64,000 nt of DNA from a virus (IMGVR_UViG_2675903038_000001:1-64000); one strand, 5' to 3'; numbered from the stretch's first letter, positions 33,501 through 50,994 are shown. Notes: generated from the letters alone by a model not told the origin. A program made the numbers and translations.

Positions 33501-35249
33501 ATGAACGACATTCCCTCATACGTAGCCTTCGACGATAATGCGCCACAAGATGAGCGCTATGACGCCCATGCAGAGTTACAAAAAAGTGCATTATCAGAAT
33601 TAATTCCGCGCCCTGAGATACAGCCGGTCATTGACTATATTCTTGATGACTTGGCTGAACAGGAAATGAGAAAGGCTTTAGCGAAGCCGAATATCATTCC
33701 TTTCCCTTCTAAAGCAGTCAAGAATAAGCAACCTGGCATGCAATCCGTGTATCTGGATGATATGCAGGTATCGGTCATGGGGCACTACTACGATAAGCCT
33801 GGCGTGTTCAGCTTCGACTCCATGCGTGCCATGGTCGAACAGACGCCGATACTCAATTCCGTAATCATGACACGTATCCGCCAGGTTCAGCGGTTCTGCA
33901 GGATACAGGAATCCGGTCGCGGGCCTGGCTTCGAGATCAAGCTCAAAGACCGTGAGGCAGAGGTAACGGATACCAACCGTCAATCCATCCAATTGATGCA
34001 GGATTTCATGCTTAACTGCGGGTGGGAAGCAAAACCACGCCAAAGAATGCGACTTAAGCGCGATGATTTTCCGTCATTCGTGGCCAAGCTGGCCCGGGAT
34101 AGTCTCACCATGGATTCAATGGCTATCGAGACAGAATACAAGCGTGACAGAAAGCTTGGGATGGATGGATTGTATGCCGTGGATGGTTCCACGATCAGGC
34201 TTTGCACGGAAGATGGTTATGAGGGAGATGACGAGATATTCGCGCTGCAGGTGGTGCAGGGGCGCATCCGTACTGCCTATACCTATGACGATCTGATCTA
34301 TGTGCCGCGCAATCCGCGTACGGATGTATTAACTGGTGGTTATGGTCTGGCTGAGACCGAGTTATTGATTCGCGTGGTCACCGGCTTCCTGAATGCCATG
34401 ACCTACAATCAAAAATACTTCGATAGTAACGCGATTCCCAAAGGGCTGTTGCACTTATCCGGAAATTATTCCGAGAAAGACCTGTCGGCATTCAAGCGCT
34501 ACTGGAATGCAATGGTGAAGGGTGTCAACAATGCCTGGACGTTGCCGGTCATGGTATCCAAGGATCAGGAATCCCGCGCGGCCTTTGAGCGCTTTGGTGT
34601 CGATGTCGATGAGATGATGTTCTCGAAATGGATGACGTTCCTGGCATCGATCATCTGTGCCATTTACGGCATTTCTCCTGATGAGATTAACTTTGAGAGT
34701 TTTAGCGCCAGTAAATCATCCCTTTCTGGTTCGGATACATCGGAGAAGCTGGCAAATTCAAAAGACAGCGGCTTACGCCCACTTCTGACTTATCTGGAAA
34801 ATATTTTCTCGGATTTCATTATTCAGGATTTCAGCGAGCAATATGTGTTTCGCTGGACAGGGCTCGATGAGGAAGACGAAGAAAAGCGCCATGAAATTCG
34901 CAAGCTGGTACTCAAGGTCAATGAAATACGCGCCCAAGAAGGTTATGACAAGCTAAATGACAAATGGGGTGAGGCCCCTGTCAATCCTGCCTTACTTGGC
35001 GCTTGGCAGTCCGAACAGCAACAGAATGATCAAGATTTTGGTAACCCGAACGAGCAAGGCGGCAATCCTGAAGGTGACGAGAATCATGGACAGTCCGATT
35101 TTGGAGATCCCGGAAAAGACGGCGCAGGGGATCAGGAAGATGCTGATTTTGGAGAGCCTGGTGAGGAAGACGGTGATGATGACAATGATTCTGATGATGA
35201 GAATCTAGGAAAGTCATTCGGCCTTCCGGTTTACACGTTCGAGGTCTGA
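33501..35249 (+). CDS. Portal protein
   Basis: GYGLAETE, NQKYFDSNAIPKG, ICAIYGISPDEI, LRPLL, VNEIRAQEG; acidic tail. Confidence 0.9.
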   Translation: MNDIPSYVAFDDNAPQDERYDAHAELQKSALSELIPRPEIQPVIDYILDDLAEQEMRKALAKPNIIPFPSKAVKNKQPGMQSVYLDDMQVSVMGHYYDKPGVFSFDSMRAMVEQTPILNSVIMTRIRQVQRFCRIQESGRGPGFEIKLKDREAEVTDTNRQSIQLMQDFMLNCGWEAKPRQRMRLKRDDFPSFVAKLARDSLTMDSMAIETEYKRDRKLGMDGLYAVDGSTIRLCTEDGYEGDDEIFALQVVQGRIRTAYTYDDLIYVPRNPRTDVLTGGYGLAETELLIRVVTGFLNAMTYNQKYFDSNAIPKGLLHLSGNYSEKDLSAFKRYWNAMVKGVNNAWTLPVMVSKDQESRAAFERFGVDVDEMMFSKWMTFLASIICAIYGISPDEINFESFSASKSSLSGSDTSEKLANSKDSGLRPLLTYLENIFSDFIIQDFSEQYVFRWTGLDEEDEEKRHEIRKLVLKVNEIRAQEGYDKLNDKWGEAPVNPALLGAWQSEQQQNDQDFGNPNEQGGNPEGDENHGQSDFGDPGKDGAGDQEDADFGEPGEEDGDDDNDSDDENLGKSFGLPVYTFEV

Positions 35250-35251
35250 TC

Positions 35252-36835
35252 TTGGACAAGGTATCCCGCGCAGTAGTAGGTGACGAAATATATTTCCACC
35301 ATAAAGATGACCCGTGCTGTGGAAAGGTGCTGTCTGTCGGGAAACATGGTGTGACGGTAGATCATGAAGGAAAACGTCAGAGTGTCACATGGGAACGTGT
35401 GCTAGGCCATAAGAAGCGAATATCACAAAAACTAAAAATAATACATGAAGGTGATGACGGCATGATTGTCGAGGATCCTGCGGGGAAAAGACGGTTTGTG
35501 CACATTCCACCGGAAGCGAAAGAGGATCAATACATGGTTAAAGCATTGGCTGATAAACGGCTATTGTTGTTTACAAAGTCAGAGAAGATCGCTAATCGTG
35601 CAGGCCTTCACTTGGAAAACAGGACGGACCGTACAGGACGAAATCAAAAAAAATGGGTACGAAGTAATCCTGAAATCACCGCAGGTAATAAACGATCAAA
35701 AGCAAAAGACCCTGACCCAAAGGATAGGCGTGGATCAACGGCAGGATATGGTATCCATAATATTGAGGCTGTTGACAGAATTCAATTTAAATTAGGAGAG
35801 CTTACCGGAGAGGGTGAGGTCGTTGGCAATCCTGGTAAAGATGGTGCTCATGTCAAGGATTCAAGCGGTCATATTCATCAGGTGCGCTGGGATCAGGTAA
35901 CAGGGCACAAAGCAGGTCCAAGTACGAAGAAGCCAGAGCACGAGAGACCGGTTCTAGGCAAGCAGGAGCCTATTCATCCTGATAATTTTAATGCGTCAGA
36001 ATACGCAAAAACTCATGATAAAGCTGATGTGACTCCAGAAGAAATTCTTTACCACTTCCCAGAGGATACTACAGATAAAATTACGAACGTTCGTGATCGA
36101 CTGAGATCGGTTGAGCAGACAATTGATAAGTACAGGCAGGACGGCAAGTATGAAGATGCACGTAAAGCATTGCATCATCAGATTGTCCGTAAAATTATGT
36201 CACCCGAGAAAATTAAGGATGCTACGCCATTTGATGGTGAGAAACCTGTATTTATCATTTTGGGAGGTCGTGGAGGATCAGGCAAGTCATGGTTTGAAGG
36301 AAATGTTTACGATCCATCTAAATTTATCGTGTTGGATGCTGATCATATAAAAGGCATGCTTCCTGAATATGAGGGTTGGAATGCACACCAGGTTCATGAA
36401 GAATCCGGTGATATATTCGATGAATTGGTTAAGACTGCACGTTTCCTTGGCTTGAACGTAGTTCTTGATAAAACTATGAAAACCGCCAAGAGCTCAATTG
36501 CAGACGTTCATGCGTTTAAGGATGCCGGATACCGAACGGAGGCACATTATATGCATTTGCCGCGCCAAGAAGCAGCCAAGAGAGCGGTGGCTAGGTTTCT
36601 TGGAAAAACCAAGAGATTTGTGCCGCCAGAGGTAGTATTGAGCAATACGACCAATGAGCATAGCTTTGATCAAGTCAAACATTTAGTAGATGACTGGAGT
36701 TTCCGTGATAATAACGTACAGCAAGGTCAGCAGCCTATTTTGATCTCAATGAAGAAGGCCATTGCGAAATTGACGAAGGCAATTAGTGAGAGGATAATTG
36801 TATTTTGGAGGTGCAACGATGGAAAAACACAATGA
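35252..36835 (+). CDS. Zeta-toxin-like P-loop kinase, multi-module
   Basis: LGGRGGSGKS, LDADHIK, HEES, VVLDKT, RAVARF. Confidence 0.8.
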   Translation: MDKVSRAVVGDEIYFHHKDDPCCGKVLSVGKHGVTVDHEGKRQSVTWERVLGHKKRISQKLKIIHEGDDGMIVEDPAGKRRFVHIPPEAKEDQYMVKALADKRLLLFTKSEKIANRAGLHLENRTDRTGRNQKKWVRSNPEITAGNKRSKAKDPDPKDRRGSTAGYGIHNIEAVDRIQFKLGELTGEGEVVGNPGKDGAHVKDSSGHIHQVRWDQVTGHKAGPSTKKPEHERPVLGKQEPIHPDNFNASEYAKTHDKADVTPEEILYHFPEDTTDKITNVRDRLRSVEQTIDKYRQDGKYEDARKALHHQIVRKIMSPEKIKDATPFDGEKPVFIILGGRGGSGKSWFEGNVYDPSKFIVLDADHIKGMLPEYEGWNAHQVHEESGDIFDELVKTARFLGLNVVLDKTMKTAKSSIADVHAFKDAGYRTEAHYMHLPRQEAAKRAVARFLGKTKRFVPPEVVLSNTTNEHSFDQVKHLVDDWSFRDNNVQQGQQPILISMKKAIAKLTKAISERIIVFWRCNDGKTQ

Positions 36836-37013
36836 AGTGAATGTGAAAAAGCCCATTCCAGGACCTGATGAAAGGCCAGACCTGTACGATGCCTATGATG
36901 GTATTGATAGACCAGAGGGATATAAAACAGGTGTAGAGATGCCTGATTATATCCAGAAGATGATTGAAGAACGGAAGGCTAAACAGCAACAGCCAGCAGT
37001 AACTAATCATTAA
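36819..37013 (+). CDS. Small protein, candidate antitoxin
   Basis: GGAGGTG SD; overlaps kinase stop. Confidence 0.55.
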   Translation: MEKHNEVNVKKPIPGPDERPDLYDAYDGIDRPEGYKTGVEMPDYIQKMIEERKAKQQQPAVTNH

Positions 37014-37040
37014 ATCAAATCTGGAAGAAGGGGGAAAAGA

Positions 37041-37622
37041 ATGGAGCAAGTTATCCCATTCTTCAAGTCGCACATTAGCGGCTACACCCGAGGTAATACC
37101 TACGTTCATGACCATTACCGTCGAGCTGCAAAATTTGCGGCTGCCAAGCATAAAGGCCAAACCCGCAAGGATGGCAAAACACCCTACATAACACACCCAG
37201 TCCAGGTGGCATCTATTCTGAGTAGAGAGGCCAAAGTAACCGATCCGGTTATCCTGTTAAGCGCATTACTACATGACACACTGGAAGATACCGACACCAG
37301 CTACGAGGAATTGGAAGCAGAGTTCGGCAACGAGGTTGCCAATCTGGTGCTGGAAGTAACCAATAATCCAAACCTATCCAAGCTGGACAGCAAAACAGCA
37401 CAAATTGCCAAGCCGTGGTCTCCAAAGGCTATCAGACTCAAGATGGCCGACAAGACGGCTAACCTGCGCGATCTGGTCAATGCTCCACCAGTTGGAATGT
37501 CAAAAGACAAAAAGATTGAATACGCCAATCATGCCAGAAAGGTGATTGAAGGCATGAGAGAGCATCCAGAAGCGTTAAAACGATTATTCGATCTAGCCTA
37601 CCAAATAGTTCTCAGTCACTAA
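37041..37622 (+). CDS. Mesh1/SpoT-like HD hydrolase
   Basis: HKGQTRK..PYITHP, LLHDTLEDT, KMADKTANLRD. Confidence 0.88.
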   Translation: MEQVIPFFKSHISGYTRGNTYVHDHYRRAAKFAAAKHKGQTRKDGKTPYITHPVQVASILSREAKVTDPVILLSALLHDTLEDTDTSYEELEAEFGNEVANLVLEVTNNPNLSKLDSKTAQIAKPWSPKAIRLKMADKTANLRDLVNAPPVGMSKDKKIEYANHARKVIEGMREHPEALKRLFDLAYQIVLSH

Positions 37623-37886
37623 ACTGCTTCATTCCATAGCGGTATGGTGTCGTAACGTACCATAATTATCTTCGACAACCTGGGCAAAACTTTTTGCTGC
37701 TAAGTATTGTCTTATTAATTACTCCGAGCGTGTGTGTGGGGTGCTTCAAAAAACATCACGCAGCTGGTGAGCAGATCTCCTTTTGCAGAGTTACCCATCC
37801 TCTGTTTCTTGCGTGAGCCAGTCGATTCCGTGCGTTAGTCGGCGATTCTATTTTTGCAAGCTGAGAAACCGGCTGCAACTATTGTA

Positions 37887-37903
37887 TGTCGTGACCTGAC
37901 AAT
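37887..37903 (+). promoter_or_regulatory. Late-promoter motif (MuF)
   Basis: TGTCGTGA-cct-GACAAT, 7 nt to ATG 37911. Confidence 0.65.
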
Positions 37904-37910
37904 ATGTGTC

Positions 37911-39071
37911 ATGACAACGCTTCTAATCGATATAGGCCCATTGAGCGAACATCAATCAGATGAAGCGCTAGAGGCAATCTACAAATCAGTCCACGATCAT
38001 GGCGGTGATGATTCTATCTGGAATCCGCATGAATCCCCATATATCAGACGATTAATCGAGTTATTTACCGAACGAGGATTAACTCGTCTCGAAAAGGTAA
38101 GGACAGAGTTAACTGCGTGGGCTAAAGGTGAAAAACACCGTAAAGATAGTCCTGTTCCAAGGCCGGAGGGCATGATACGCCGGTGGGACAAAGGCGAGCT
38201 TGCATTGGTCAAGCTCTATCTTGAAGCCTTGCCACCGGAGCAATTCACCCTGGATGATTGGGGAATGGTCGTTGATTTTTTGGTGCAGCGTTATCTGCCG
38301 GAAGATGAATTGCGTACCGAAGCAGAATGGCTGGCAACGCGATCAGGATTAATGGGCAAGGTGCAAGCAAACATGCAAAAGTCACCAAACTTGAAGCAGG
38401 CAGACAGGTTGCTGGCAGCTATGCCCAATACCGTCAAGGGTGCGTCCAAGCAATTCAAACTATCATCCGTGCAACATGCGGTACTGGACTTTGGGCGTGC
38501 GCGTGCAGCCGAAGCAGTGACAAGGCTATCTGACAACGTGCGTCACAAAATGCGTGATGTGATCATGCAGCATGAAGAACAGAAGATGCTCAATGGTGGA
38601 GCAGCTACGCCGGGGTCAGCCCTAAAAACGCGATTGTTAGATGAATTTGCCGTATTGAACAGAGATTGGCGGCGTATTGCGTTGACAGAAGCAGGAGAGG
38701 TCGCAAATCAAGGATTTATTGCTTCATTGTCTCCTGGCGCCAAGGTAAAAAGAATTGAGCAGTATCGTGGAGCATGTCCATTTTGCCGGAAGATAGACGG
38801 TGTAGTAATGGAAGTGGTTCCAGCTAGCAAGGATGATAAAGACCCGGATAAGATGATTTGGGTAGGAAAAAACAATGTAGAGCGATCAGGTTCCCCGCGT
38901 AAACGTGTAGGAGGCGAGTTGGTGGAGCGTTTGCCTGAAGAGCAGTGGTGGGTGCCTGCAGGTGTAGCGCATCCAATGTGCCGTGGTCAATGGATAAAAT
39001 TATCCGAATCCAGAGCGGATGATGATCCTGATTTTGCTGAATGGTTGAAAAATACACTGGAGAAGAAATGA
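37911..39071 (+). CDS. MuF/SPP1 gp7-like head morphogenesis protein
   Basis: RRIALTE, ACPFC..DG, HPMCRG. Confidence 0.8.
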   Translation: MTTLLIDIGPLSEHQSDEALEAIYKSVHDHGGDDSIWNPHESPYIRRLIELFTERGLTRLEKVRTELTAWAKGEKHRKDSPVPRPEGMIRRWDKGELALVKLYLEALPPEQFTLDDWGMVVDFLVQRYLPEDELRTEAEWLATRSGLMGKVQANMQKSPNLKQADRLLAAMPNTVKGASKQFKLSSVQHAVLDFGRARAAEAVTRLSDNVRHKMRDVIMQHEEQKMLNGGAATPGSALKTRLLDEFAVLNRDWRRIALTEAGEVANQGFIASLSPGAKVKRIEQYRGACPFCRKIDGVVMEVVPASKDDKDPDKMIWVGKNNVERSGSPRKRVGGELVERLPEEQWWVPAGVAHPMCRGQWIKLSESRADDDPDFAEWLKNTLEKK

Positions 39072-39646
39072 TATTTTTCCTCAAGAATCATCCTATCAAT
39101 CAAGCTGTAATTCGTGGTGCTGCAGTCAAAGACCTGAATGAAGGTGAAATTCGTCGCAATCCTGGCGAACCATCTCCAGAAGCAGCCAAGGCTGACAAGT
39201 ACAAAATGCCTGTTATCAAGTGGCGAGGATTGAGCATTCGTATCGAGAATCCTGCCGGTTCCGTGCGCCGTGGCCATAACTGGGAAACCAGAATGAAATA
39301 TGACTACGGTTATATCAGCGGCTCAAATGGAGTAGATGGGGACGAGGTGGATGTATATCTTGGGCCATATCTTGATATAGCAGAAATCGTTTACGTAGTT
39401 CATCAGCGCAAATACGGCAAGTGGAACCAATACGACGAAGATAAATGTTTGATCGGATTTATGTCTGAGGATGAAGCCAAGGCAGCTTACCTTGCGCATT
39501 ACGATGATCCACGCTTTCTAGGGCCAATAACAGCATTGCCGGTTGAGGAATTTATCGAAAAGGTCAAAGCGACAAGAGAACAGTCTGGAATGATCAAATC
39601 GATGATTCTATTCTTCAAAGCCAACGTCAATCGGTGCTCGATTTAA
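39068..39646 (+). CDS. Inorganic-pyrophosphatase-like (InPase) domain protein
   Basis: IENPAGSVR, DYGYI, DGDEVDVYLG, YDEDKCLIGF. Confidence 0.8.
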   Translation: MIFFLKNHPINQAVIRGAAVKDLNEGEIRRNPGEPSPEAAKADKYKMPVIKWRGLSIRIENPAGSVRRGHNWETRMKYDYGYISGSNGVDGDEVDVYLGPYLDIAEIVYVVHQRKYGKWNQYDEDKCLIGFMSEDEAKAAYLAHYDDPRFLGPITALPVEEFIEKVKATREQSGMIKSMILFFKANVNRCSI

Positions 39647-39703
39647 TGCTGCGATGATGAATATCTAAGCATCACATTCTTAAAACAAGATTCATAAAAA
39701 AAG

Positions 39704-39720
39704 CATCGTGACACGACAAT
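39704..39720 (+). promoter_or_regulatory. Late-promoter motif (DarB-like)
   Basis: CATCGTGA-cac-GACAAT. Confidence 0.55.
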
Positions 39721-39754
39721 AGGCTCAATAACCTTTTGTCGAAGTCGCGAGCCT

Positions 39755-42700
39755 ATGTTGATTCTTTTCCTGAAAGCAGAACAGCAATCGCTGCTGTTTG
39801 ACGCTCCTGTATTAGTGCAGGGATCAGTCCGTAAAGACGGAAGTGTAGTAAAACCGCACGTGCGGATTCAAAAAAAGAAACTGCCTGATTCTGGCGGTAC
39901 GCAGGGGAATTTATTTGGTGATAATTCCACTGAACAATCGAAAAAACCCTCAAAGTTAGACGCATTCATTGCCAAGCAAGGCGGAATGCAGTCTCTTGCG
40001 TCCAAGCTATCAATGCTGACTGAAGGTCAGCAACAAACGATCTTCGAGAAAATAGCTGCACTTGATGGCAAGACCATCAAGGAAGTATCTGCGATGTTCG
40101 ATGGGCTGAAGGTCGAGGAAGTGAAACAGCCCGATCTATTTGCGCAACCTGCTGCGTCTGGGAATCCTTCTAAGACCGAGGGTTATGTGACACCTCCCAA
40201 ACTTGATTTGCCAATTGTAGAGCACGACGGTGACACCTGGTATATCACCAACACTGGAGCCGCTCGTGAGGATGGTAAGGTCTATGCACACCTATCCAGC
40301 GCGACACGTGGGCGGCATGCCAGAAACGGCATTTACCCAGTTCAAATATCTGACTGGATCAGGCTTGATAAGCCGGAAGTGTCCGAGTCTGCAAGTGATG
40401 ATCTGCCTATCGTCGAGCACGTCACTAGGAAGGGCAAGATCATACGAGGAATTATCCGAAAGGATTTGACCAAGGAAGAAGCTGCCGGAATCGACCAATA
40501 TACCTTCCTTAAGGATGGTGGCTGGTTTATCCGGGAAAAGCATCTGGAAGGAGAGGCCTATCAAAACTCAATTAAGAAAAAAACACCATTAGACACTAAC
40601 GATTCCAATGATTCGGAAACCGTCAGTCAAGAGAAAATCGATAATGCTATCGATCCCCTGGTCTTTGGTGTGAAAGCTGGTATTACCAAGGCAGAGCGTA
40701 GGAAGCTGAATACGGCTGCTGCGGCTCTGGTGATGAAAGTGCCGGGAGATATGACCGATGCAGACCGAGCATTATTGCGCCAGTATTCCGGGAATGGCGG
40801 TTGCGGTGATTCGCTTAACGAATTCTATACCGATCCGGCAGTGGCATTGGCTATGTGGAAGGTTGCGGAAAGACTTGGTATTACCCACGGCACGGCTTTG
40901 GAGCCATCATGTGGATCGGGCGTATTCCTGCACACTGCGCCTGATGGAATCAAGGTTACCGGTGTCGAATTGGAAAGTATTTCCGCTAAGATAGCTGAAG
41001 CATTGCATGGTGAGCGTCATGAAATCGTGAATGCATCGCTGGAACGCTTTGCTACACAGGATACGCGGCGATTCGATATCGTGATCGGCAATCCGCCGTA
41101 TGGGCCGCGAGGCATGCTTCTGAAAGATGACAAGAAGGATTTGTCGAAGGCGGAAGAGTATTTCATCGACACCAGCTTGGATAAAACGCGGGCTGATGGA
41201 TTGTGTATGCTGGTAGTGCCAAGCGGCATTATGGATAGCAAGAATGGGCGCAAGTTCCGGGAAAGAATGTTGCGTAAGGCTGAATTCCTGGGCGCTCAGC
41301 GGCTGCCTAATAGTGCATTCGAGGCAAGTCATACCGATGTTACCGCAGATGTGATTTATTTGCGTAAACGGCCCGATGATGTGGCTGGGGCGCTGGGTAC
41401 GCTGGATAAAAAGACGTTGCAATCGATTGGCGTATGGGATGACGAATTCCTGTCAGGAGCTTACTTTGAAGGGCGCGGCAAAAGTAACGTGTTCGGTGAA
41501 GTGGGCACGGCAATGCGCGCTTTCGGTGAGATTTACACGGTCAATGGTTCAATGCGTGACGTACCTGATCTGATTGAGAAATTCGACCCGAACTCAGAAA
41601 CTAAAACACCGTCAATGCAGGATATCTTGAATGCCTTGCCGGATGAAAGCGACAAGAATCGCGCGCTAAATGCTGCCGACAAAAAACCTTATCATGATGG
41701 TGCCAAGGTAGGGGATATCAAGATAGAGGATGGCGTTACCTACGTATTGCAGGGCAATCCTCCCCGTTGGCACAGAGCTGACGAGGCCATGCAGTCTGAA
41801 GCGGTGACGAGTGCTTTGGAGCTGGCTGCCGAAATCGATAGATTAATGAGCGGGCAAGCCGTGGATCGGGCCAAGCTTGAAGAAGATGTGCGGGAATGGA
41901 TGGGGCTGCATGGCATACCATCCAATCACCCGGATTTATTGGTTGCTGCTGCGAACGATAAAACCCTGTATCGGCTGATAGGAGCGGTAGGCAAGGATGG
42001 CAGATTATCTGATGTTGTGTCCGGTAGAGAAGCAGAAAGGATTGAGGGCGGATTTGATGCGGTTGCTCAATCGTTGGCGCTATCTCATGAGTCTGGTGAC
42101 TTCACAGTGGCTGAATTGGCTGAAGCTCTGAATAAAGATGAAGACGAAGTGCTAGATCAGCTATTTGCGGATGCGCGCTATGCGGTGGTTAATGACGAGC
42201 GCTGGTCTCCCATGGATGCTTATCTGACCGGGCAATTATGGCCTAAGCTCGATACGGTCAATGCCAAGCTGTCCGTGGGTGGAATGGATGGCGTAATGCG
42301 ATCGAAGCTAGAGAATCAGAAGCGCCAGCTTGAGGAAACCATCGATCCGAAATCGCTTGAGGATGTGGATATCCAATTGAATAGCGCATTCATTCCATTG
42401 AATGTCATGGAAGTGTGGATTGATAGTCGGGCCGATGAGTTGCGTGAAAAATTCCCTGAATCTAGCTGGTATCGGGATATGGCGCCGGCGTCTGTGACGT
42501 TCGAGGGCGGCGTTTACAAGATAGGTAAAGGGGTGGCTATCAATGACGGATTGCTCGATAAATACCTGAATCGTACCGGCGTCAGAAAAGATGATCTGCC
42601 TACCATCGAAGAGTGGAACGAGCAATTCAAAGAGTGGTTGCTCACGTCTGAACATCGGGAGATGGTGGAGGATTTATATAATCGTAAATTCCGTGGGTTC

Positions 42701-45700
42701 GTGCATCGTGAATATTCTGATGAACCGATTGATATTCCTGGTCTGGCGAATCATGACAAGATCAAGCCATATCAGTGGCCCGGTCTGCGGTGGGCGCTTG
42801 CGGCAGGCAAGGGCATTATTGCGGACGATGTCGGGCTAGGCAAGACGATCCGGGCGCTGATGTTGGCGCGACTGGCCAAGCTTACCGGCAAAGCTCAAAA
42901 ACCTATTATCGTCGCGCCTAAATCGGTGCTGGCCAACTGGTATGTGGAATCTCAAAAATGGTTCCCTGGTTCCAAAGTGATGACCATAGGCGGTGATTTT
43001 TCTTATGATGCGAACGGTAAGCTAGTTGGGCGGGACGACAACAAAAATGAGCGTGAACGTAAATACCATGACATAACGCAAAACGATTATGACTTCATTG
43101 TTATCTCTGAGCCGGTATTTCAGGAAATCGACCTTGACCCTAAAACCAAAAAAGAGATGTACGACACAGATTTTTGGGTGCAACGTGGCGATTCGTTGGG
43201 TAATGCCGGTGATAAGCGCATCAAGAAAATCCGCGAAGCTTATGAGCAATCGATTGCCAAGCGAGAGTTCTCCGGCACAACGGGCGTGATTTACTTCAAT
43301 GATTTGGGCGTGGATATGGTGATTGCGGATGAGGCACACCATAACAAGAATCTATATGCGGCGAAATCTCGTTTCGGTGACAGTCCAAAATTCTTGGGTG
43401 GTCAGGGTCTGTCGAATCGGGCACTTGACTTCAATTTAAAGGCCCGTTGGCTGTTGAATAATAATGGCGGCAAGGGTGTTTATGGTCTGACAGCCACACC
43501 TACCAAAAATAGCCCGTTGGAAATCTACTCAATGTTGTCGCACATCGCACCAGAAGCATTTGAAAGAATCGGTATCCGTAACAGTGAAGAATTCCTGGAT
43601 AGATTCTGCAAGTTCGAGACAGATAATGTCTTGAGCACTAGCGGCGAGATTGAGGAAGCTTTGGTAGTTGCTGGCTTCAAGAACATGGATGAATTGCGCA
43701 ATCTCATGGCGCAATATATACGTCGCACCACGGCGGATGACGTTGGGCTCAAGCTGCCTGGGCGTGATGATCGAATGCACCTGATTGATATGACGCCACA
43801 GCAACAAGCTGTCTATGATGAATTGCGTGAGATGGCCGTCAATGCTGCCAAGAAAGACGCTACCGGCGATGCGCACATATTCAGTGTCATGGATAAAATG
43901 AACAAAGCGGCCCTTGACCTGGAAATATATGATCCCGAGACTTACGTGGGCGTTACCAGTCCGAAATACAAGGAGCTCGCCAAGCACGTTGCTAGCGGCA
44001 TTAAAGAGGGCGGTCAGGTTGTATTTTCTGATTACATTGATGCTCACGACAAGATTGTGAGAGAGCTTGTAAAATCCGGCATACCTAAAAATAAAATCGG
44101 TGTGATTAATGCCCAAGTGGCGTCGAGTTCGGTGAAGCGTCAGAATATTGCCGATCAGTTCAATAGCGGCAAACTGAAAGTGGTTATCGGTAACACAGCT
44201 ACCATGGGTGAGGGTATTAACTTGCAAATGGGCACCACTGATATTCACCATATGGACTTGCCGTGGGAGCCCGCCAGCGTGCAACAACGTAATGGCCGTG
44301 GATTACGCCAAGGCAATATCAGCGAGGCTGTGAGAATTCATACTTACCTGTCAAAAGGGTCGTTTGACGGCTACCGTTACCAGTCGATAGGCGCCAAGAA
44401 GGATTGGCAAGACTTGCTATGGAATGGCGGTGATAAGATTGAAAATCTGTCTCGGGAGGGCAATATTAGCCGGGATGAAATGCTTATTATGCTGTCCGCT
44501 GACCCTGATGCGGCGCGTGAGAAATTTGCTTCCGACAAAGAAGCTGCGCTGCAGCGTCACGAGGCCGGTGAGCGCGCCAAAGCTGCCGAGGAATACGTTA
44601 GGTTCCAGACTTTAACGGCGGGCTACAAAGCGCTTAAAAACAAAAACACGACCAGTGCCGCAATGCTGCAATCCAAGATGGAGAAGGCTAGGGTTGCGTT
44701 GAAAGGCAATCGATTCTTTACCGCAAAAAACCTGCTGGATTCAGATACCGATGCACTCATGGAGCCGCAATCCGGGAATGTTTTTCATGCTGGCTTCGCG
44801 TTTCATGCCGTGAATGAAGGGGGTGAAAAAGAAGGTCAATTTGTCGTAACCGGCGTTAATCTCAAAGATCGCACCGTATCCGTTCGAGGCTACGCTGATA
44901 TTGATGGGCGTAAGCGCACCGTGAAGCTTGCTGATTTGAAACACGGTATTACTCCTTTTGCTTTCAGCGAAGAGGATGAAGCAAAGGCAGTGTCTATCAA
45001 GATTGAAGAAAGGGCGGCGGCGGGATTGAGTGATATCAAAGATTACAAGCAGCTTGTCGGTATTCCGTCTAATGTCTTAACTGCATCGGGTGCTGCCATT
45101 CAGGCGCAATTGAAGGAGGGTGCTAAGAATTACAAGCTAAGCATTCCGAATGGGAAGTTACCCATGATAAATAAAGAGAGCGGCGCTTTTGATTTGGTGG
45201 ATCATTATTCTGTGCGTGACAAGCTAGATACTCATGATTTTGTGCTGCCTACCGATGAGAATAAAAAACGACTGGAAGACGCCTGGATGGATCAGGAGCG
45301 CAATATAAAATTTGGCACAGAGGCATTTACATCGAGCAGAAAGCGAGGCAGTAATAGCAGTGGTGTGACGCATGCAATCAAAGAATACAGAGGGGCATCG
45401 TTTGGAGATAAAAAAGTCAATCCATTTTCGAGTCATGTTGCTAGTACAAATGGCGAATCATTCTCTTATTACGATGAAAGAACATCGAAATCTGTCAAGG
45501 CGCTGAAGGATCGTTTCCATAAAGAGCAAGTCGAAAGAGCCAAGAAAGCCAAAACGCTTAATCAGACAATTGACGAGGTTGCGCCCTTGGGTGTGGTTCA
45601 GGACTACACGAAAGGGCATGGCGCGCACGTAAAGCTGCCCAAAAAGGCGCTGGCTATCCTGTGGGCAAAAGCACGGCACCTGGGTGTATTGGGCGATAAA

Positions 45701-46114
45701 TTAGTCGATCATTTGCCGCAAGTCGAGGTGCTTGGTGGCCGGTCGCTTGGTAAGCACAATGGGTACTTTCACGGATCTAGGCACGAAAAATCGGTGCATG
45801 CCGCATTGATTGGCATGGCGAAAGATGCTGGGTACGACGATCTTGTTTCAGCAATGGTTGAATCCGGCCTGCGTCATTACAAAGAAGCAGATCATAAGGA
45901 GGTATTGAGCCAGTTGCATCAAGACTATGGTCACAGCGATCAAGTGCTTAAAATGATGCTTAAATTAGCGGAAGCATCTGGCATTGCTGACATGAAGGCG
46001 GTTAATGCGGAAACCGGTATTCAGAATGCTGGAATACTGCGGCCTAGACAATGGGGCGGGGATGAGCATAAAACGATACGAGAAATCATAGAGGGGCGCA
46101 TTAAGAATGGTTGA
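39755..46114 (+). CDS. DarB-like N6-adenine MTase + SNF2 helicase polyvalent protein
   Basis: LEPSCGSG, GNPPY; DDVGLGKT, DEAH, TATP, QRNGRGLRQG. Confidence 0.88.
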   Translation: MLILFLKAEQQSLLFDAPVLVQGSVRKDGSVVKPHVRIQKKKLPDSGGTQGNLFGDNSTEQSKKPSKLDAFIAKQGGMQSLASKLSMLTEGQQQTIFEKIAALDGKTIKEVSAMFDGLKVEEVKQPDLFAQPAASGNPSKTEGYVTPPKLDLPIVEHDGDTWYITNTGAAREDGKVYAHLSSATRGRHARNGIYPVQISDWIRLDKPEVSESASDDLPIVEHVTRKGKIIRGIIRKDLTKEEAAGIDQYTFLKDGGWFIREKHLEGEAYQNSIKKKTPLDTNDSNDSETVSQEKIDNAIDPLVFGVKAGITKAERRKLNTAAAALVMKVPGDMTDADRALLRQYSGNGGCGDSLNEFYTDPAVALAMWKVAERLGITHGTALEPSCGSGVFLHTAPDGIKVTGVELESISAKIAEALHGERHEIVNASLERFATQDTRRFDIVIGNPPYGPRGMLLKDDKKDLSKAEEYFIDTSLDKTRADGLCMLVVPSGIMDSKNGRKFRERMLRKAEFLGAQRLPNSAFEASHTDVTADVIYLRKRPDDVAGALGTLDKKTLQSIGVWDDEFLSGAYFEGRGKSNVFGEVGTAMRAFGEIYTVNGSMRDVPDLIEKFDPNSETKTPSMQDILNALPDESDKNRALNAADKKPYHDGAKVGDIKIEDGVTYVLQGNPPRWHRADEAMQSEAVTSALELAAEIDRLMSGQAVDRAKLEEDVREWMGLHGIPSNHPDLLVAAANDKTLYRLIGAVGKDGRLSDVVSGREAERIEGGFDAVAQSLALSHESGDFTVAELAEALNKDEDEVLDQLFADARYAVVNDERWSPMDAYLTGQLWPKLDTVNAKLSVGGMDGVMRSKLENQKRQLEETIDPKSLEDVDIQLNSAFIPLNVMEVWIDSRADELREKFPESSWYRDMAPASVTFEGGVYKIGKGVAINDGLLDKYLNRTGVRKDDLPTIEEWNEQFKEWLLTSEHREMVEDLYNRKFRGFVHREYSDEPIDIPGLANHDKIKPYQWPGLRWALAAGKGIIADDVGLGKTIRALMLARLAKLTGKAQKPIIVAPKSVLANWYVESQKWFPGSKVMTIGGDFSYDANGKLVGRDDNKNERERKYHDITQNDYDFIVISEPVFQEIDLDPKTKKEMYDTDFWVQRGDSLGNAGDKRIKKIREAYEQSIAKREFSGTTGVIYFNDLGVDMVIADEAHHNKNLYAAKSRFGDSPKFLGGQGLSNRALDFNLKARWLLNNNGGKGVYGLTATPTKNSPLEIYSMLSHIAPEAFERIGIRNSEEFLDRFCKFETDNVLSTSGEIEEALVVAGFKNMDELRNLMAQYIRRTTADDVGLKLPGRDDRMHLIDMTPQQQAVYDELREMAVNAAKKDATGDAHIFSVMDKMNKAALDLEIYDPETYVGVTSPKYKELAKHVASGIKEGGQVVFSDYIDAHDKIVRELVKSGIPKNKIGVINAQVASSSVKRQNIADQFNSGKLKVVIGNTATMGEGINLQMGTTDIHHMDLPWEPASVQQRNGRGLRQGNISEAVRIHTYLSKGSFDGYRYQSIGAKKDWQDLLWNGGDKIENLSREGNISRDEMLIMLSADPDAAREKFASDKEAALQRHEAGERAKAAEEYVRFQTLTAGYKALKNKNTTSAAMLQSKMEKARVALKGNRFFTAKNLLDSDTDALMEPQSGNVFHAGFAFHAVNEGGEKEGQFVVTGVNLKDRTVSVRGYADIDGRKRTVKLADLKHGITPFAFSEEDEAKAVSIKIEERAAAGLSDIKDYKQLVGIPSNVLTASGAAIQAQLKEGAKNYKLSIPNGKLPMINKESGAFDLVDHYSVRDKLDTHDFVLPTDENKKRLEDAWMDQERNIKFGTEAFTSSRKRGSNSSGVTHAIKEYRGASFGDKKVNPFSSHVASTNGESFSYYDERTSKSVKALKDRFHKEQVERAKKAKTLNQTIDEVAPLGVVQDYTKGHGAHVKLPKKALAILWAKARHLGVLGDKLVDHLPQVEVLGGRSLGKHNGYFHGSRHEKSVHAALIGMAKDAGYDDLVSAMVESGLRHYKEADHKEVLSQLHQDYGHSDQVLKMMLKLAEASGIADMKAVNAETGIQNAGILRPRQWGGDEHKTIREIIEGRIKNG

Positions 46115-46433
46115 TCCTAAAACGTTCGCAGATTCTACCCTGCAACTGTTGCAGCAAGACCCGAGGCGTTATAGAAATTTTGGCGTCTATTGGTATTTTG
46201 TCAAAGCGCTGATGAAGCGATATTATACGAATGAAAATCTGTATCTATTGGGCGAGTATATGGATGCAGATACGATAGCCAGAATGCCTGAGCATAAGAC
46301 TCTGCAGGAAGCGATAGAAGCTGCTGTAGAAGAATATCGTAGCAATGCATCATATAACCTGGGGCGTGAAACTGTGGAGGATTTATCGGGCGGTGGGGTA
46401 ATTCTTTTGCATGATGAAGATGCTGGAGTCTGA
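46107..46433 (+). CDS. Hypothetical protein coupled to DarB-like gene
   Basis: 108 aa, overlaps preceding stop. Confidence 0.7.
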   Translation: MVDPKTFADSTLQLLQQDPRRYRNFGVYWYFVKALMKRYYTNENLYLLGEYMDADTIARMPEHKTLQEAIEAAVEEYRSNASYNLGRETVEDLSGGGVILLHDEDAGV

Positions 46434-46435
46434 TT

Positions 46436-46452
46436 TGTCGTGACCTTACGAT
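46436..46452 (+). promoter_or_regulatory. Late-promoter motif (SNF2)
   Basis: TGTCGTGA-cct-TACGAT, 6 nt to ATG. Confidence 0.7.
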
Positions 46453-46458
46453 TGGCTG

Positions 46459-49400
46459 ATGAAGCCAATCTTCTTTCTAAAAGCGGCAATTCCTCCTGGC
46501 GCGCGCTGGATCACGGTACATCCCAACGGTAAGGATGCAAAAGGTCAGCCGTTACTCATTCAGGAGGAATCAGATGGAAGCATGCGCGTTATTGGCGGTG
46601 CTGGCGGCAAGCTTAACTACCTGAAGCTGCGTAATGTACGCTCAGAATCCGATTACAAGAAAGAGGCGGCTGAGCGTAGAAAAGCGCAAACCGAACAAAG
46701 AAAAGAGCAGCGCAAAAAAGATAAAGAGCTTGGTATAGGTGAGTCCAAAACCAAGGTGCGTCAAGCGATCATTCAGCAACGCAAGGTAGCTGAGAAGGAA
46801 TACGTTCAGGCTGTTGCGCAATCAATGAGTTGGGATCAATCTTCTCTGGAATTTCCAGAAAAAGAGTACGGCCATCTATCTGAAGCGACCATCAACAAGC
46901 TGCGCAATACCCATCACAAAAAACTACTGGAAAAAGCAAAGCAAGCAGTAGAGCTGCAACGGCAAAAATTGCTATCAAGCGAAGAAGCAAGACTAGCCGC
47001 TGGAATAGGTGAAATACCGCTCAATTCGCAAGATGAGGAAACGCTCTCTGTTGATGATCTTGATCCCGTTCCCAGTCAATCCAGCGGCCTTGGTTATGAT
47101 ACCAATTACAAAGGAAGAGCTGAACAAGCCGGTTTAACCGATGATGAGCTGTCAGTCGAATCCAACAAAATCCGCTCTGAGAAACTTGCTCAGTTAACCG
47201 ATGCTCAACGAATGGCGGCAATTCGCCGTGGTGAAGCATCAAAGCTATTGAGAGCTGAACTTGAGAATATCCGTGAGCCGGTTGTATCCAATGCCGTGAA
47301 TGTGCTGGACGATGCTAAGGCTGCGGTCGAATTACTCAAGGCCGAAAAGAAACTGAAAGCCATTAATCAGCAGGCTAAAGTAAAATTGGCCGAAGTTGAT
47401 GCAGCTACCAGCAAGGTGGAACCGAAAGCATTCGTGCTCGAGTATTCTGCTGATCCGGATCTGGAAAAGAGCATTGCAGAAGATATCGAAAACGACCTTC
47501 GCACTGCGCAAACACGCACATTTTTGGCGGAATTTCAGCGGTTAGCCGGTGATAAACCGGAGGAAACCGTTGGAAAATATATGGGTATCGGTGCTTATAA
47601 CAGCATTAATTCCCTGGCGCTTGCTGTGGGCGGTGATGCTTTGGTAGATCGCTCAGTGGTCGATGTGCTGGGTATAGCCGGTGCAGCGCAAGTGCTGGCA
47701 AGGCGAATCCATAACGATCTGAAAGAAGACGTGGATCGGATTGCTGAAGGCATGCAGGAATTCCACCTTCATCATTACATGGAAACCAGCGAACAGGCAT
47801 TGGGCCGAGCGCGTGAATTGATGGATGTCGCACGTGAAATAGAGATAGGCGAGGGCGCAACAGGAGCCGATCTTAAAACGGCGCAAGAGCTCAATTCTAA
47901 GCGTAGAACTGCGGTGACGGATGCGCAAAAGATCGTAGGGCAGGCGTTGGGCGAGATGGAAGCCAATGCGGCGCTGGTGGTTGCGCTCAAGCAGGGTGCA
48001 AAAGATTCAGTACAGGTACCGTTAGGCAATCTGCCGGTGGATAGCACGGTCGTTCGAGCACGGGCAATCGGATTGCAGCGTGGCGACTATCAAATTGACG
48101 ATTTATCCGGTCAGACCTTCTTGACAATTAACGCTGATGGAATGGATAGACTGGCAAAACCTGTCAATCGGGCAGATGTCGAGCAAATCAAGCGTAACCT
48201 ATCAATCATGCGTGGCGATCACGATGAAGATGGTTGGCTGCCGTTGGGCGTTGCCAACAGGCCGGATTTGGCAATGGAGGTTAAGCCGGGTATTGCGCCA
48301 AGGTTAGCTGAACCATTTCAACCGGGCGAGGACTTGGAACAATCACTGCGAGATTATATCGGTGGACGCACGGCTGATGGTGATACGCCTGCCGATATTC
48401 TGGCTGATATTCAATCGCTGGATTTCTTCCAGAAAGCAGGTAGTGATGAAGCGTACAGAGCTGCGCTAGATGTTGTTGCACCATTAAAGGATCAAGATGG
48501 AAAAATACAACGAGCTGAATCGCTCTCTGACCATTTCGAGCAATATGCAGACCAATTCGTACAATCCAGATACGGTGGATCAAGATCCCCGATCAACCGT
48601 CAAAAGTTTGAAATCAACCAAAAATCAGTTGATGCACTCCATCGCGCATTGTCAGAGGCACCGGAGGGTGTGGCGGCATATAAGCAGATAGGCGAGTTGA
48701 CCCATACTGATCAAAGGACGCTTAGAGAGTATTTCTATCGTCATGTGGCGAAGGAAACCCCGGAATCCAGCATGTTGCGTCAAGACCTGGAGCAATTGGA
48801 CAAAAACGAGCCGGAAAAAGAGTTTGTCGATATGTTTGGCGACACGGCTACTAACCCGGAATGGTCGGCTTGGCGCAATCAGCGTGATGAGCTTGCGGCG
48901 AAGGTTAATGCTGCATCTCTAACCTGGGATAAGTATATTGACACGATGCGTGGGCATGAAAAAGCCTACGAGTCCATTCAGGACATGATTCGTTCGCGCG
49001 TGTCCAAAAAGTTTGTTGATGAGCACAATAAACTGAATCCCGATAATCCTTTGAAGATAGGCCGGTCTGTTATCCGTAATAACCTGAATCATCTGGATGC
49101 AACAGACCAGGAAACGCGGGAAGCAAGAATGGCAGAACAAAGGCAGTTGATAGACAGTCTGCGTGAGCGCTCTCAAGGCAGATATGCTGCAGGTTCTGTC
49201 TCTGACAAACTGGATGCGGTGAGAGAACGTCAGGAAGCGTTTGAACAGTCGCAAATGGATTTCTTTTCTACTGAGGAAATGCCTGCTGAGGAAGCCATTA
49301 AAGAATTAAGAAGCGATGAGCGGCATACAGTAGGGCATGAAGCAGAGCGGCAGATTGCCGGGATGATGGGTATTGTCGGCAAAAACTTTAAGCCGGGGCA

Positions 49401-50994
49401 ACCCGTAAAACTCTGGAATCCATCGATGAGCGGGGGCGATAATTACGCGCGTCAGCGGGCTATCAAGCTGATTCAGGCAAACAAGCGCATCGGCTTGCAC
49501 CTAGGCGCGGGATCCGGAAAAACGCTTGTCGGTCTCGGCGGATTTACCCATCTTCATCAGCAAGGGCTTGTAAAAAGAGGGATTGCGGTAGTTCCAAGCA
49601 TAGTCCAAGGGCAGTTTTCGGGAGAGGCCATCAGGTATCTTGAGCCGAACAAGTTTAACTGGCACATCGAGCCTGGCGCAAACCGTGCGGAGCGAATCGC
49701 GGCATATAAAAATCCTGATAATCATCTTTGTGTTGTAACTCATCAATCGCTTCGTGACGATCTGTTATATCTGGGTTCGCAACGCGCGGGTATTCCGCCA
49801 AAAGAAATGTCTGAGCGTGTATCAGTGATGACTCACGCAGAACGCAAAGAGTGGGCGCGTGATCTGATGGAGAAAGAAGGAATCGATTTTCAGTACATGA
49901 TGATCGATGAAGGTCATAACCTTCTCGACCGTCAAGGGAAGGAAGATTCCGCCATGTCCAACGTGATCGGCTCTTTTTCTGCAAATACTCCTTACTATGT
50001 GAGCATGACCGCCGACCCGGTTCGCAATGACGCGTCGGAAATATTCTCCGCGTTGCAGAAGGTAGCACCGGAAAGATATACCGACAGAGCGGAGTTCATG
50101 CGCCGCTACGGAACAGATACATTGGCATCAAAGGATGCATTGCGTCGAGAAATGGCAAGATACTTCTATCCTCACAAGATAGAACCAAAAGTCAATGTCA
50201 AAAGCGATGTGGTGAACGTGCCGCTCAGTGAAGGCCAGAAACACGCTCTGTCTTCATTGGATAAGGATTTGGCGTCTATGCGCATTGCCAGAATGCAAGG
50301 CAAGGTGGATATTGAAGCTGCAAAACGGGTGAATCCCGCTATGTTCGATGGCGTTCCCGAAGATCGGCATGAATCGATTGCGAAGTCGTTGCAAAACGCA
50401 ATTGGGATTGTCCGTGAGTCCGCTACGCAACGAATAATCAATGCTCACCCAGAATCTGCGAAACTGGACGAAGTGGCGAAACAGGTCAAAGCGAGAAGCG
50501 GGAAACCAGGAATTATTTTTTCACACAGCCTGGAAGCCGTTGAATCCATCAAGTCGCGGCTGGAAAAGGAAGGGATGCGCGTCGTTACGATATCAGGAGC
50601 AGATTCGTCTGCTGAGAAGGATCGTAAGCGCAAGATGTTCAGCCCCGATGGGGGTGAAGAACCGAAAGTCGATATTCTTGTGGCGTCAGATGCTGCAAGC
50701 ACGGGGCTAAACGCGCAGCGCGGTCAGTACCTGATTCAGTACGACGTGGTGAATACTGCGATGACTCACGCCCAGAGGAGGGCGCGCATACACCGGATTG
50801 GGCAGAAAAATGATATTGAATTGATTGATTTGGTTGGAGACCATCCTTCTGAGCGCAGAGCAAGAGACCGATTGGCAAAAAAGTATCAGTTGAGGGATTT
50901 GACTACGAGCCCGCTGGAAGGACTTGATGATACCGGCCTGGCTTATTTCCTGCGCCAGCGAGAACTAACACAAAATCAAGGAGGGTTGTTTTGA
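46459..50994 (+). CDS. Large SNF2-family ATPase
   Basis: GAGSGKT, DEGH, TADP, TGLNAQ, QRRARIHRIGQ; ~950-aa helical N terminus. Confidence 0.85.
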   Translation: MKPIFFLKAAIPPGARWITVHPNGKDAKGQPLLIQEESDGSMRVIGGAGGKLNYLKLRNVRSESDYKKEAAERRKAQTEQRKEQRKKDKELGIGESKTKVRQAIIQQRKVAEKEYVQAVAQSMSWDQSSLEFPEKEYGHLSEATINKLRNTHHKKLLEKAKQAVELQRQKLLSSEEARLAAGIGEIPLNSQDEETLSVDDLDPVPSQSSGLGYDTNYKGRAEQAGLTDDELSVESNKIRSEKLAQLTDAQRMAAIRRGEASKLLRAELENIREPVVSNAVNVLDDAKAAVELLKAEKKLKAINQQAKVKLAEVDAATSKVEPKAFVLEYSADPDLEKSIAEDIENDLRTAQTRTFLAEFQRLAGDKPEETVGKYMGIGAYNSINSLALAVGGDALVDRSVVDVLGIAGAAQVLARRIHNDLKEDVDRIAEGMQEFHLHHYMETSEQALGRARELMDVAREIEIGEGATGADLKTAQELNSKRRTAVTDAQKIVGQALGEMEANAALVVALKQGAKDSVQVPLGNLPVDSTVVRARAIGLQRGDYQIDDLSGQTFLTINADGMDRLAKPVNRADVEQIKRNLSIMRGDHDEDGWLPLGVANRPDLAMEVKPGIAPRLAEPFQPGEDLEQSLRDYIGGRTADGDTPADILADIQSLDFFQKAGSDEAYRAALDVVAPLKDQDGKIQRAESLSDHFEQYADQFVQSRYGGSRSPINRQKFEINQKSVDALHRALSEAPEGVAAYKQIGELTHTDQRTLREYFYRHVAKETPESSMLRQDLEQLDKNEPEKEFVDMFGDTATNPEWSAWRNQRDELAAKVNAASLTWDKYIDTMRGHEKAYESIQDMIRSRVSKKFVDEHNKLNPDNPLKIGRSVIRNNLNHLDATDQETREARMAEQRQLIDSLRERSQGRYAAGSVSDKLDAVRERQEAFEQSQMDFFSTEEMPAEEAIKELRSDERHTVGHEAERQIAGMMGIVGKNFKPGQPVKLWNPSMSGGDNYARQRAIKLIQANKRIGLHLGAGSGKTLVGLGGFTHLHQQGLVKRGIAVVPSIVQGQFSGEAIRYLEPNKFNWHIEPGANRAERIAAYKNPDNHLCVVTHQSLRDDLLYLGSQRAGIPPKEMSERVSVMTHAERKEWARDLMEKEGIDFQYMMIDEGHNLLDRQGKEDSAMSNVIGSFSANTPYYVSMTADPVRNDASEIFSALQKVAPERYTDRAEFMRRYGTDTLASKDALRREMARYFYPHKIEPKVNVKSDVVNVPLSEGQKHALSSLDKDLASMRIARMQGKVDIEAAKRVNPAMFDGVPEDRHESIAKSLQNAIGIVRESATQRIINAHPESAKLDEVAKQVKARSGKPGIIFSHSLEAVESIKSRLEKEGMRVVTISGADSSAEKDRKRKMFSPDGGEEPKVDILVASDAASTGLNAQRGQYLIQYDVVNTAMTHAQRRARIHRIGQKNDIELIDLVGDHPSERRARDRLAKKYQLRDLTTSPLEGLDDTGLAYFLRQRELTQNQGGLF

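Follow-up and report, generated by a model that had tools for sequence, protein, structure and literature searches.

A hydrophobic-lysine element on the head-module enzymes of a prophage: a candidate load-and-trim label for capsid cargo

We report the analysis of a short peptide element, here called the tag, that recurs on otherwise unrelated enzymes encoded in the head module of a prophage. The window, which is the whole stretch of viral DNA that was analysed, comprises 64,000 nucleotides (IMGVR_UViG_2675903038_000001:1-64000), and the head module occupies 33.5-54.6 kb of it, with all genes on the + strand; the phage itself is ~87 kb and lies on a contig of 87.5 kb. The tag follows a simple grammar, in which a hydrophobic run, 4-5 residues long (typically M-I-L-[LF]-[LF]), is joined to the enzyme through a lysine and then an alanine or serine, written K/[AS], where '/' between residues is the putative cutting site. 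We consider it reasonably likely that this element is a load-and-trim label for capsid cargo, a lysine-specific counterpart of the T4 capsid-targeting sequence placed on polyvalent-protein enzymes. The original prediction for this region, that a portable tag loads arbitrary enzymes into the prohead, is clipped after the lysine and the cargo is then injected with the DNA, is partly supported.

As we understand it, loading and trimming would take place in three steps. During prohead assembly the hydrophobic run, probably helped by a basic hairpin, would hold the enzyme in the core formed by scaffold and protease. A serine protease resembling T4 gp21 would then cut after the lysine, at a site, [ML]-x-K/[SA], that would also be used to shred the scaffold, to trim the protease and to remove a 29-residue leader from the capsid protein. 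The freed enzymes would remain in the head and exit with the DNA. In the present phage the cargo would consist of a Zeta-type kinase, a ppGpp (guanosine tetraphosphate)-hydrolase-like HD protein, an inorganic pyrophosphatase (InPase), a DarB-like methylase-helicase and a second helicase.

Every peptide quoted in the original prediction was found in the translated open reading frames (ORFs), at the positions collected in Table 1. The InPase most likely starts at the ATG at 39068, which has a GGAG 5 bases upstream, and MIFFLKN would for this reason be its true N-terminus. The peptide of the kinase protein is likewise present, though its position has been corrected: it is an internal junction between two modules. 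The 94 residues ahead of this junction are kept in gp34 of the Bordetella phage vB_BbrM_PHB04 (hereafter PHB04), which has the same junction, LVTKSLGADGRVLLFFKA, and both the junction and the C-terminal sites of the kinase protein are kept there despite an overall identity of 32%. The portal protein carries sites at K28 (LQKS), K58 (MRKA) and K571 (LGKS), the last followed by FGLPVYTFEV and the stop codon, while the MuF-like protein has a single conserved site, IYK/S, at K44 of the ORF, no hydrophobic-lysine tag, and no match in Pfam or PHROGs. An internal WYFVKA in the Ulx-like protein was rejected as a tag: it belongs to the fold, and the pattern matches it falsely.

The tag pattern is far from chance. 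A relaxed form of the long pattern, [ILVM][ILVMFP]F[FLT]K[ASN], was run against a six-frame translation of the 3.2-Mb genome, with ORFs taken from stop to stop and at least 100 codons long; there are 48 matches genome-wide and 14 within such ORFs, six of them inside the 16-kb block between portal and protease. The strict form of the pattern gives 11 matches in ORFs of this length, six again in the block. On the contig the tag stands at the start of four of 116 non-overlapping ORFs, all four being cargo genes, and five of the 124 annotated coding sequences of PHB04 begin with it, namely gp25, gp27, gp28 and gp32 from the portal-to-protease block and gp49. The motif is not equally frequent in non-head proteins: with the exception of gp49, it is confined to head-cargo genes on the contig and in PHB04. 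These figures make it very improbable indeed that the tag is a product of chance, of low complexity or of a nucleotide-level signal in the start region, a reading that draws on the shortness of the peptides, which were picked by eye, and on the chance-level frequency of the four-residue motif in two large proteins. Furthermore, PHB04 encodes the same tag residues with codons other than those of the window, which indicates that selection acts on the peptide, and the element is found at C-termini and inside proteins, against what a nucleotide start signal would give.

The shorter motif, [LIMVF]xK[AS], was compared with its expectation from 2000 shuffles of each protein. In the scaffold it occurs 8 times against 0.92 expected, a number that none of the 2000 shuffles reaches, and in the protease 4 times against 0.81 (P=0.0065). 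It is not individually significant in the portal (3 against 1.08), the capsid (3 against 0.80) or the MuF-like protein (2 against 1.08), and its overall frequency in the two large cargo proteins is what chance would give (7 against 6.8 and 6 against 4.3), such that only their N-terminal copies count. The copies that had been claimed for scaffold (eight), protease, portal, MuF-like protein and capsid are all there, with a statistical weight that differs by protein; by itself the short motif, being at or near chance, was rejected as evidence in the portal, the capsid, the MuF-like protein and the large cargo proteins, for which only the copies conserved in PHB04 were kept. In PHB04, enrichment for the short site is limited to the scaffold (gp21) and the protease (gp22). 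Outside the window, at 73711-76338 of contig C70, the tail module holds an 875-residue tail-fibre-like ORF with three L-K-S or D-K-S sites in its first 24 residues; it alone among the remaining ORFs of the contig is enriched for the short motif (4 observed, 1.08 expected).

Conservation in relatives extends this picture. PHB04 (94 kb) has a gene order identical to that of the head module in the window, and it retains the N-terminal tags of the HD protein (gp32), the methylase-helicase (gp27) and the SNF2 protein (gp25). In gp25 one of six sites is kept, and this is the N-terminal one; the five other, internal copies are lost. The portal keeps 3/3 sites (gp35), the scaffold 6/8, the protease 3/4 and the capsid its LQK/A. 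Among InPase homologues the tag lies within the first 20 residues in 73 of 120 and its C-terminal form is present in 82 of 120. Across 84 IMG/VR loci the tag falls in residues 1-40 of 101 of 1935 + strand ORFs, against 14 in the control segment at residues 40-80 and 15 of 2860 - strand ORFs; for the C-terminal form the count is 91 of 1365 + strand ORFs, against 15 in its control segment and 5 of 1875 - strand ORFs. The tag is a conserved element, kept in PHB04, in InPase homologues and in IMG/VR loci.

A profile of 120 non-redundant N-terminal tags, partly shaped by the search pattern itself, reads M, [ILMV], [LIV], [LF], [LFIT], K, [AST], often followed by H. Scans of viral contigs with single proteins gave only 5 loci for the MuF-like protein and 4 for the protease, and a scan with the InPase alignment located the tag at 16 loci of genome contigs whose titles name alpha-, beta- and gamma-proteobacteria and a small number of further groups. 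Removal of 14 Ulx-like matches of the WYFVKA type from 74 non-redundant tagged ORFs left 60, among which a few that look like spurious ORFs were retained. The tag of the methylase-helicase is also borne by 10 related large proteins. As a separate observation, all 10 of the DarB-like large proteins among the 60 tagged ORFs have Q-x-x-L-F at most 15 residues after the tag lysine, where ~0.25 would be expected from background; the carriers are the window (39779-39850) and loci L007, L013, L014, L015, L027, L034, L052, L070 and L081. We take this peptide to resemble the bacterial sliding-clamp-binding peptide.

The element takes three forms, a wider grammar than in the original prediction, which also did not take in the excisability of the run or the lack of a run at the scaffold and capsid sites. 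The N-terminal form is M-hhhh-K/[AS], where h is hydrophobic; the C-terminal form is h-x-K/[AS], then 0-8 residues, then hhhh and the stop; and the inter-module form, seen between Pfam domains in fused relatives, is h-x-K/[AS]-hhhh-x-K/[AS]. Where the domains are solo genes, one gene ends inside the junction sequence and the next begins inside it, from which it follows that the hydrophobic run has a site or a chain end as its limit in every case and is always excisable. Portal proteins end in an acidic stretch and then L-x-K-[AS]-F-G-L-P-V-[YF] (window 35207-35249; loci L019, L048, L083 and others), and a structural protein thus bears the element in its C-terminal form.

This arrangement bears on the possibility that the element is a processing site only, by which the prohead protease cuts polyvalent proteins apart at K/[AS], with solo N-terminal copies as leftovers of gene fission and with targeting left to another factor, for which the hairpin, the Ulx-like or MuF-like protein and DNA binding are candidates. 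The element does lie between Pfam domains in fused relatives, the split genes do end and begin within the same junction sequence, the hairpin co-occurs with the tag, and the loading of DarB in phage P1 needs Ulx and other Dar proteins (PMC9024508). Yet the run is retained at the N-termini of solo genes, where cutting separates nothing, and is kept in 5 orthologue pairs with PHB04, whereas bare sites without a run suffice in the scaffold. A close relative is particularly instructive in this regard, as its SNF2 protein has 255 extra N-terminal residues that begin with the tag MRPILFIKS, while the old boundary is marked by a bare LVK/S in the place of FLK/A in the window, ahead of the shared IP(P)GARWITVHPNG; with a module added in front, the run has moved to the new N-terminus and a bare site has stayed behind. 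We consequently regard processing alone as rather unlikely, and continue with the load-and-trim label as the preferred reading.

The element is also portable, as had been proposed from its presence on unrelated enzyme families; this is borne out by the variety of domains and by a split within the HD family. The tagged proteins of relatives carry Zeta_toxin, HD_4, InPase, NUDIX, PAPS_reduct, RadC, ART-PolyVal, LPD1, LPD3, DUF5710, Acb1 and SNF2 domains. Among the 120 best HD matches, 43 have both tag and hairpin, 8 the tag only, 6 the hairpin only and 63 neither, the last being cellular proteins of the MESH1 and small alarmone hydrolase (SAH) types, including metazoan MESH1 and bacterial SAH proteins. 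The hairpin-like module, of the type HVxGYTRxDGxxVxxHxR, is small and basic, follows most tags and could serve to bind DNA or be the address proper. No Pfam family covers the tag or hairpin region in any protein scanned, and the N-terminal modules of kinase protein, methylase-helicase and SNF2 protein, like the extra module of the relative described above, also gave no Pfam match. One metagenomic protein (P0050, 342 residues) has a tag and hairpin followed by an Acb1 domain, directed against the cyclic oligonucleotide-based antiphage signalling system (CBASS), fused to an InPase; in that phage Acb1 would be a pre-loaded, injected counter-defence enzyme. In the Pseudomonas phage tabernarius the InPase is fused to a 'minor head protein' in the portal position, which represents another solution.

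The protease that would act on these sites has 428 homologues at E <=0.001 in a representative library. Residues D43, H71 and S144 are invariant in 66 homologues, and a catalytic role can be suggested for H71 and S144. The AlphaFold2 (AF2) model, with a predicted local distance difference test (pLDDT) score of 87, has T4 gp21 (5jbl) as its top Foldseek match (E 9e-4, probability 1.0), followed by herpesvirus proteases, and the protein is accordingly modelled with the T4 gp21/assemblin fold; a PDB sequence search with the protease gave no match. Its own sites are MLK21/A, LQK52/A, LVK199/S and IAK210/A, with K21 and K199 invariant in a 16-sequence alignment and at least 90% conserved among the 66, and with the K199 and K210 sites lying in a linker of pLDDT<50 that precedes a copy of the capsid N-arm. 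In this copy, protease residues 208-235 (52087-52170) repeat capsid residues 28-55 (53178-53260) as K-ALEAGYGTD.AQL.GG.ALR.QSL, and the consensus of the 66 homologues keeps KALxAGYGTDxAxLxGGxALR; it may serve to anchor the protease to the procapsid lattice.

The motif [LIMVF]-x-K-[AS] is found 489 times in 108 protease homologues, for an expectation of 73 (6.7-fold), while no other residue in place of the lysine exceeds 1.3-fold and glutamate is at chance (90 against 90.6 expected). In 120 scaffold homologues there are 858 sites against 96.5 expected (8.9-fold over shuffles), or 5-10 per protein, with M, then L, G and F in falling order two residues before the lysine (P3) and with S about as often as A after it (P1'). 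The capsid matches 9vel (2e-32) and 5lii (4e-21) in the PDB and is of the SPO1/Twort type. The chains 9row and 5lii are Staphylococcus Twort-like capsid chains homologous to the capsid of the window; the 9row chain (439 residues) is the 5lii chain (463) without its first 24 residues, and its residue 1 aligns with A30 of the window capsid, directly after LQK. The start of the 9row chain would, judging from the deposit, correspond to the mature end; no usable account of the phi812 capsid cut was found in the literature searched. The enrichment in scaffold and protease, the protease fold and the capsid alignment together point to [ML]-x-K/[SA] as the most likely cutting specificity.

The same data speak to a further alternative, that the run forms a beta-strand which inserts into the portal, the MuF-like protein, the capsid or other cargo and stays on the mature protein uncut, the Lys-[AS] pair being incidental or used otherwise. 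The presence of the element at both termini of the cargo and at the portal C-terminus would suit such a docking strand, as would the fact that no cut has been observed. Against it, the run is followed by the very K-[AS] pair for which scaffold and protease show a 7- to 9-fold enrichment, confined to lysine, and the flanking sites always permit excision of the run. Moreover, both tails of the AF2 model of the InPase have low pLDDT and are flexible and outside the folded core, as expected for linear motifs. We regard an uncut docking strand as quite improbable.

Several points nonetheless weigh against a load-and-trim label. The sites of scaffold, capsid and portal have no hydrophobic run, which implies that cutting as such does not depend on it; the suggestion that it is a handle comes from its constant and excisable position. 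Some genes of the block have no tag (those for the MuF-like and Ulx-like proteins, the small ORFs and, in PHB04, the phosphatase gp31), and the InPase tag of the window has an asparagine rather than alanine or serine after its lysine. The tag comprises only 5-8 residues before the lysine and is shorter than known signals. In phage P1, 9 residues of DarB are insufficient for packaging (PMC9024508), and the N-terminus of P1 DarB has no such peptide. The basic hairpin, which co-occurs with the tag, may be the true address. The homologue counts given above are not independent events. That the tags would be cut, that the run would recruit the cargo, and that packaging and injection would follow is what we infer from the sequences. 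Finally, cuts after lysine are invisible to ordinary tryptic proteomics, so that published virion proteomes could neither show nor exclude them and such processing may have been overlooked; no PHB04 virion proteome was found in the literature searched.

A wider claim may be made more tentatively. The element could be a general, sequence-readable loading code for injected phage effectors, in which an excisable handle and a Lys-[AS] site for a gp21-like protease, placed N-terminally, C-terminally or between modules, are read by the protease or scaffold core as receptor in hundreds of proteobacterial phages with SPO1-type heads; we hold this to be a serious possibility, though short of probable. 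Were it true, virion cargo could be predicted from the tag on any ORF, with anti-CBASS Acb1, NUDIX, ADP-ribosyltransferase and alarmone hydrolase modules among the examples, and foreign proteins could be loaded into these capsids. The load-and-trim label would, if correct, allow injected effectors to be read straight from the sequence in a large group of phages (PHB04-like, of about 90 kb and present in many metagenomic contigs and proteobacterial genomes). It would also explain how polyvalent enzymes enter heads and are cut apart, by the head protease rather than by metallopeptidase domains, and it would mean that anti-defence activities, such as restriction evasion, the hydrolysis of alarmones and cyclic nucleotides, and ADP-ribosylation, arrive with the DNA as ready-made protein. 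In laboratory phage-host pairs the tag offers a simple handle for testing the loading of proteins into capsids.

The features of the head module are listed in Table 1. The genes follow the order portal, kinase protein, HD hydrolase, MuF-like protein, InPase, methylase-helicase, Ulx-like protein, second SNF2 protein, protease, scaffold and major capsid protein, and the nearest named relatives of the HD and scaffold proteins are from Nitrosomonas.

Table 1. Genes, tags and related sites of the head module. Domains were called with Pfam and PHROGs (Phage_portal, Zeta_toxin, HD_4, InPase, N6_Mtase/Eco57I with SNF2, SNF2/ResIII, head maturation protease, major head protein and Ulx-like); positions are those of the window.
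Feature	Position	Strand	Basis or remark
Portal protein	33501..35249	+	Pfam Phage_portal
Two-module protein with Zeta-toxin-type kinase domain (residues 325-468)	35252..36835	+	Pfam Zeta_toxin 8e-20
Kinase protein, internal junction tag (MVKA...LLLFTKS), MVKALADKRLLLFTKS	35534-35581	+	residues 95-110
Kinase protein, hairpin-like module	35600-35650
Kinase protein, C-terminal motif LTKAISERIIVFW	36749-36835	+
MESH1/SpoT-like HD hydrolase	37041..37622	+	Pfam HD_4 from residue 29
HD hydrolase, N-terminal tag MEQVIPFFK/S	37041-37070	+	then basic hairpin HISGYTRGNTYVHDH
HD hydrolase, hairpin-like module	37071-37124
MuF-like head protein	37854..39071; probable start ATG 37911	+	57% identity to PHB04 gp30
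Polyvalent-type inorganic pyrophosphatase (InPase)	39041..39646; probable start 39068	+	Pfam InPase 5e-42, residues 48-175
InPase, N-terminal tag MIFFLK/N	39068-39088	+
InPase, C-terminal double site MIK/S MILFFK/A	39590-39622	+	7 residues before end
DarB-like N6-adenine methylase with SNF2 helicase, 2119 residues	39755..46114	+	Pfam N6_Mtase, Eco57I, SNF2-rel_dom, Helicase_C
Methylase-helicase, N-terminal tag MLILFLK/A	39755-39778	+	then QSLLF and basic hairpin
Methylase-helicase, hairpin-like module	39800-39860
Ulx-like protein, 108 residues, untagged	46107..46433	+	phrog_1629 Ulx-like anti-restriction, 1.6e-15
Second SNF2/ResIII helicase, 1511 residues	46459..50994	+	Pfam
Second SNF2, N-terminal tag MKPIFFLK/A	46459-46485	+
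Second SNF2, hairpin-like module	46500-46560
Prohead protease	51466..52386	+	phrog_1028
Scaffolding protein, 8 [LM]-x-K-[AS] sites	52398..53051	+	site count
SPO1/Twort-type major capsid protein	53097..54557	+	PDB matches 9vel, 5lii, 9row
Predicted capsid maturation site LQK29/A30	53181-53186	+	conserved in relatives

Two further observations concern the DNA around these genes. A GTCGTGA-like word lies ~15-20 bases upstream of several tagged genes, here and in PHB04 (window 46434-46458 and 39730-39754; locus L001 27390-27414 and 3726-3750); the genes that have it show no obvious Shine-Dalgarno sequence, and the word may be a late regulatory or initiation signal. Directly upstream of the portal, at 28895-33188, four + strand ORFs of 564, 391, 307 and 148 residues interrupt the head-gene region. 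Judged by eye, without a family search, the 391-residue ORF resembles a C5 cytosine methylase and the 148-residue ORF a Vsr-type endonuclease.

The logic of capsid targeting proposed here is already known from T4, whose scaffold is cut at many sites. A hydrophobic leader ending in Lys-[AS] on phage cargo was not found described in the literature searched, with the supplements of Iyer et al. and of the P1 paper outside its scope. The internal proteins of T4 have only a capsid-targeting sequence in common, which takes them into the scaffolding core (PMC3012670), and gp21 removes this leader at [IL]-x-E (PMC3012670, PMC12991175). In the passages of these papers that describe it, the T4 sequence is, like the tag, a short N-terminal leader on diverse anti-defence proteins that ends in the prohead protease's own site. 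The two systems are also alike in the gp21 fold modelled for the protease, with its His/Ser pair, in a scaffold full of the site, and in cargo carried in the head, as predicted here. Unlike in T4, the residue before the cut is lysine, followed by alanine or serine, and not the glutamate of [IL]-x-E, which is at chance in the protease homologues; the leader is a plain hydrophobic run of 4-5 residues; and the element stands at C-termini and between modules as well. The predicted cargo of polyvalent-protein enzymes and the SPO1/Twort-type capsid set the system further apart from T4.

In the giant phages of the SPN3US/phiKZ group the propeptide site has glutamate before the cut, [ASG]-x-E. Head and ejection proteins of these phages lose N-terminal propeptides at a short motif through a gp21-like protease, which trims its own C-terminal part, and the propeptides have been suggested to target the prohead core (PMC10052503). 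As they are described in the passages of that paper dealing with them, the propeptides are 20-254 residues long and, unlike the tag, have no one short leader in common; they were found by semi-tryptic searches, which are unable to reveal cuts after lysine (PMC10052503). The Felix O1 protease (PMC3185647) was dropped as a comparison because, from the part of that report concerned, it belongs to another protease family.

Polyvalent proteins were proposed by Iyer et al. in 2017 to be packaged and delivered with the DNA, with zincin-like metallopeptidase domains as the processing enzymes (PMC5512222). Their repertoire, as given in that paper, of InPase, methylase-helicase dyad, HD, kinases, ART-PolyVal, LPD1/LPD3 and RadC is recognisable in a head context here, with InPase, Zeta_toxin, HD_4 and the methylase-helicase in the window and ART-PolyVal, LPD1, LPD3 and RadC in tagged relatives. 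Unlike in polyvalent proteins, most domains in the window are separate, individually tagged genes; the only fusions are the methylase-helicase and the two-module kinase protein, and the HD and InPase domains, solo here, are fused in relatives. The passages of Iyer et al. matched by term, with the supplementary alignments outside the scope, mention no shared leader or prohead-protease site (PMC5512222).

The Dar proteins of phage P1 stay in the head and leave with the DNA, and the first 30 residues of DarB suffice for its packaging (PMC9024508). The present module resembles that system in encoding, beside portal and protease, a DarB-like methylase with an SF2 helicase as well as an Ulx-like protein. 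A signal directly of the P1 type was discarded, as the N-terminus of P1 DarB shows by eye no likeness to the tag; its first 60 residues, judged by eye without an alignment, have no hydrophobic-K-[AS] leader. The P1 authors, in the part of their work concerned, find no consensus among the Dar N-termini (PMC9024508), whereas here one tag is common to five or more proteins, and the P1 capsid is cut at E120/S121 rather than after a lysine. The head itself resembles those of SPO1 and Twort in a capsid protein homologous to SPO1 Gp6.1 and to the Staphylococcus phage capsid, with the predicted removal of a leader after lysine.

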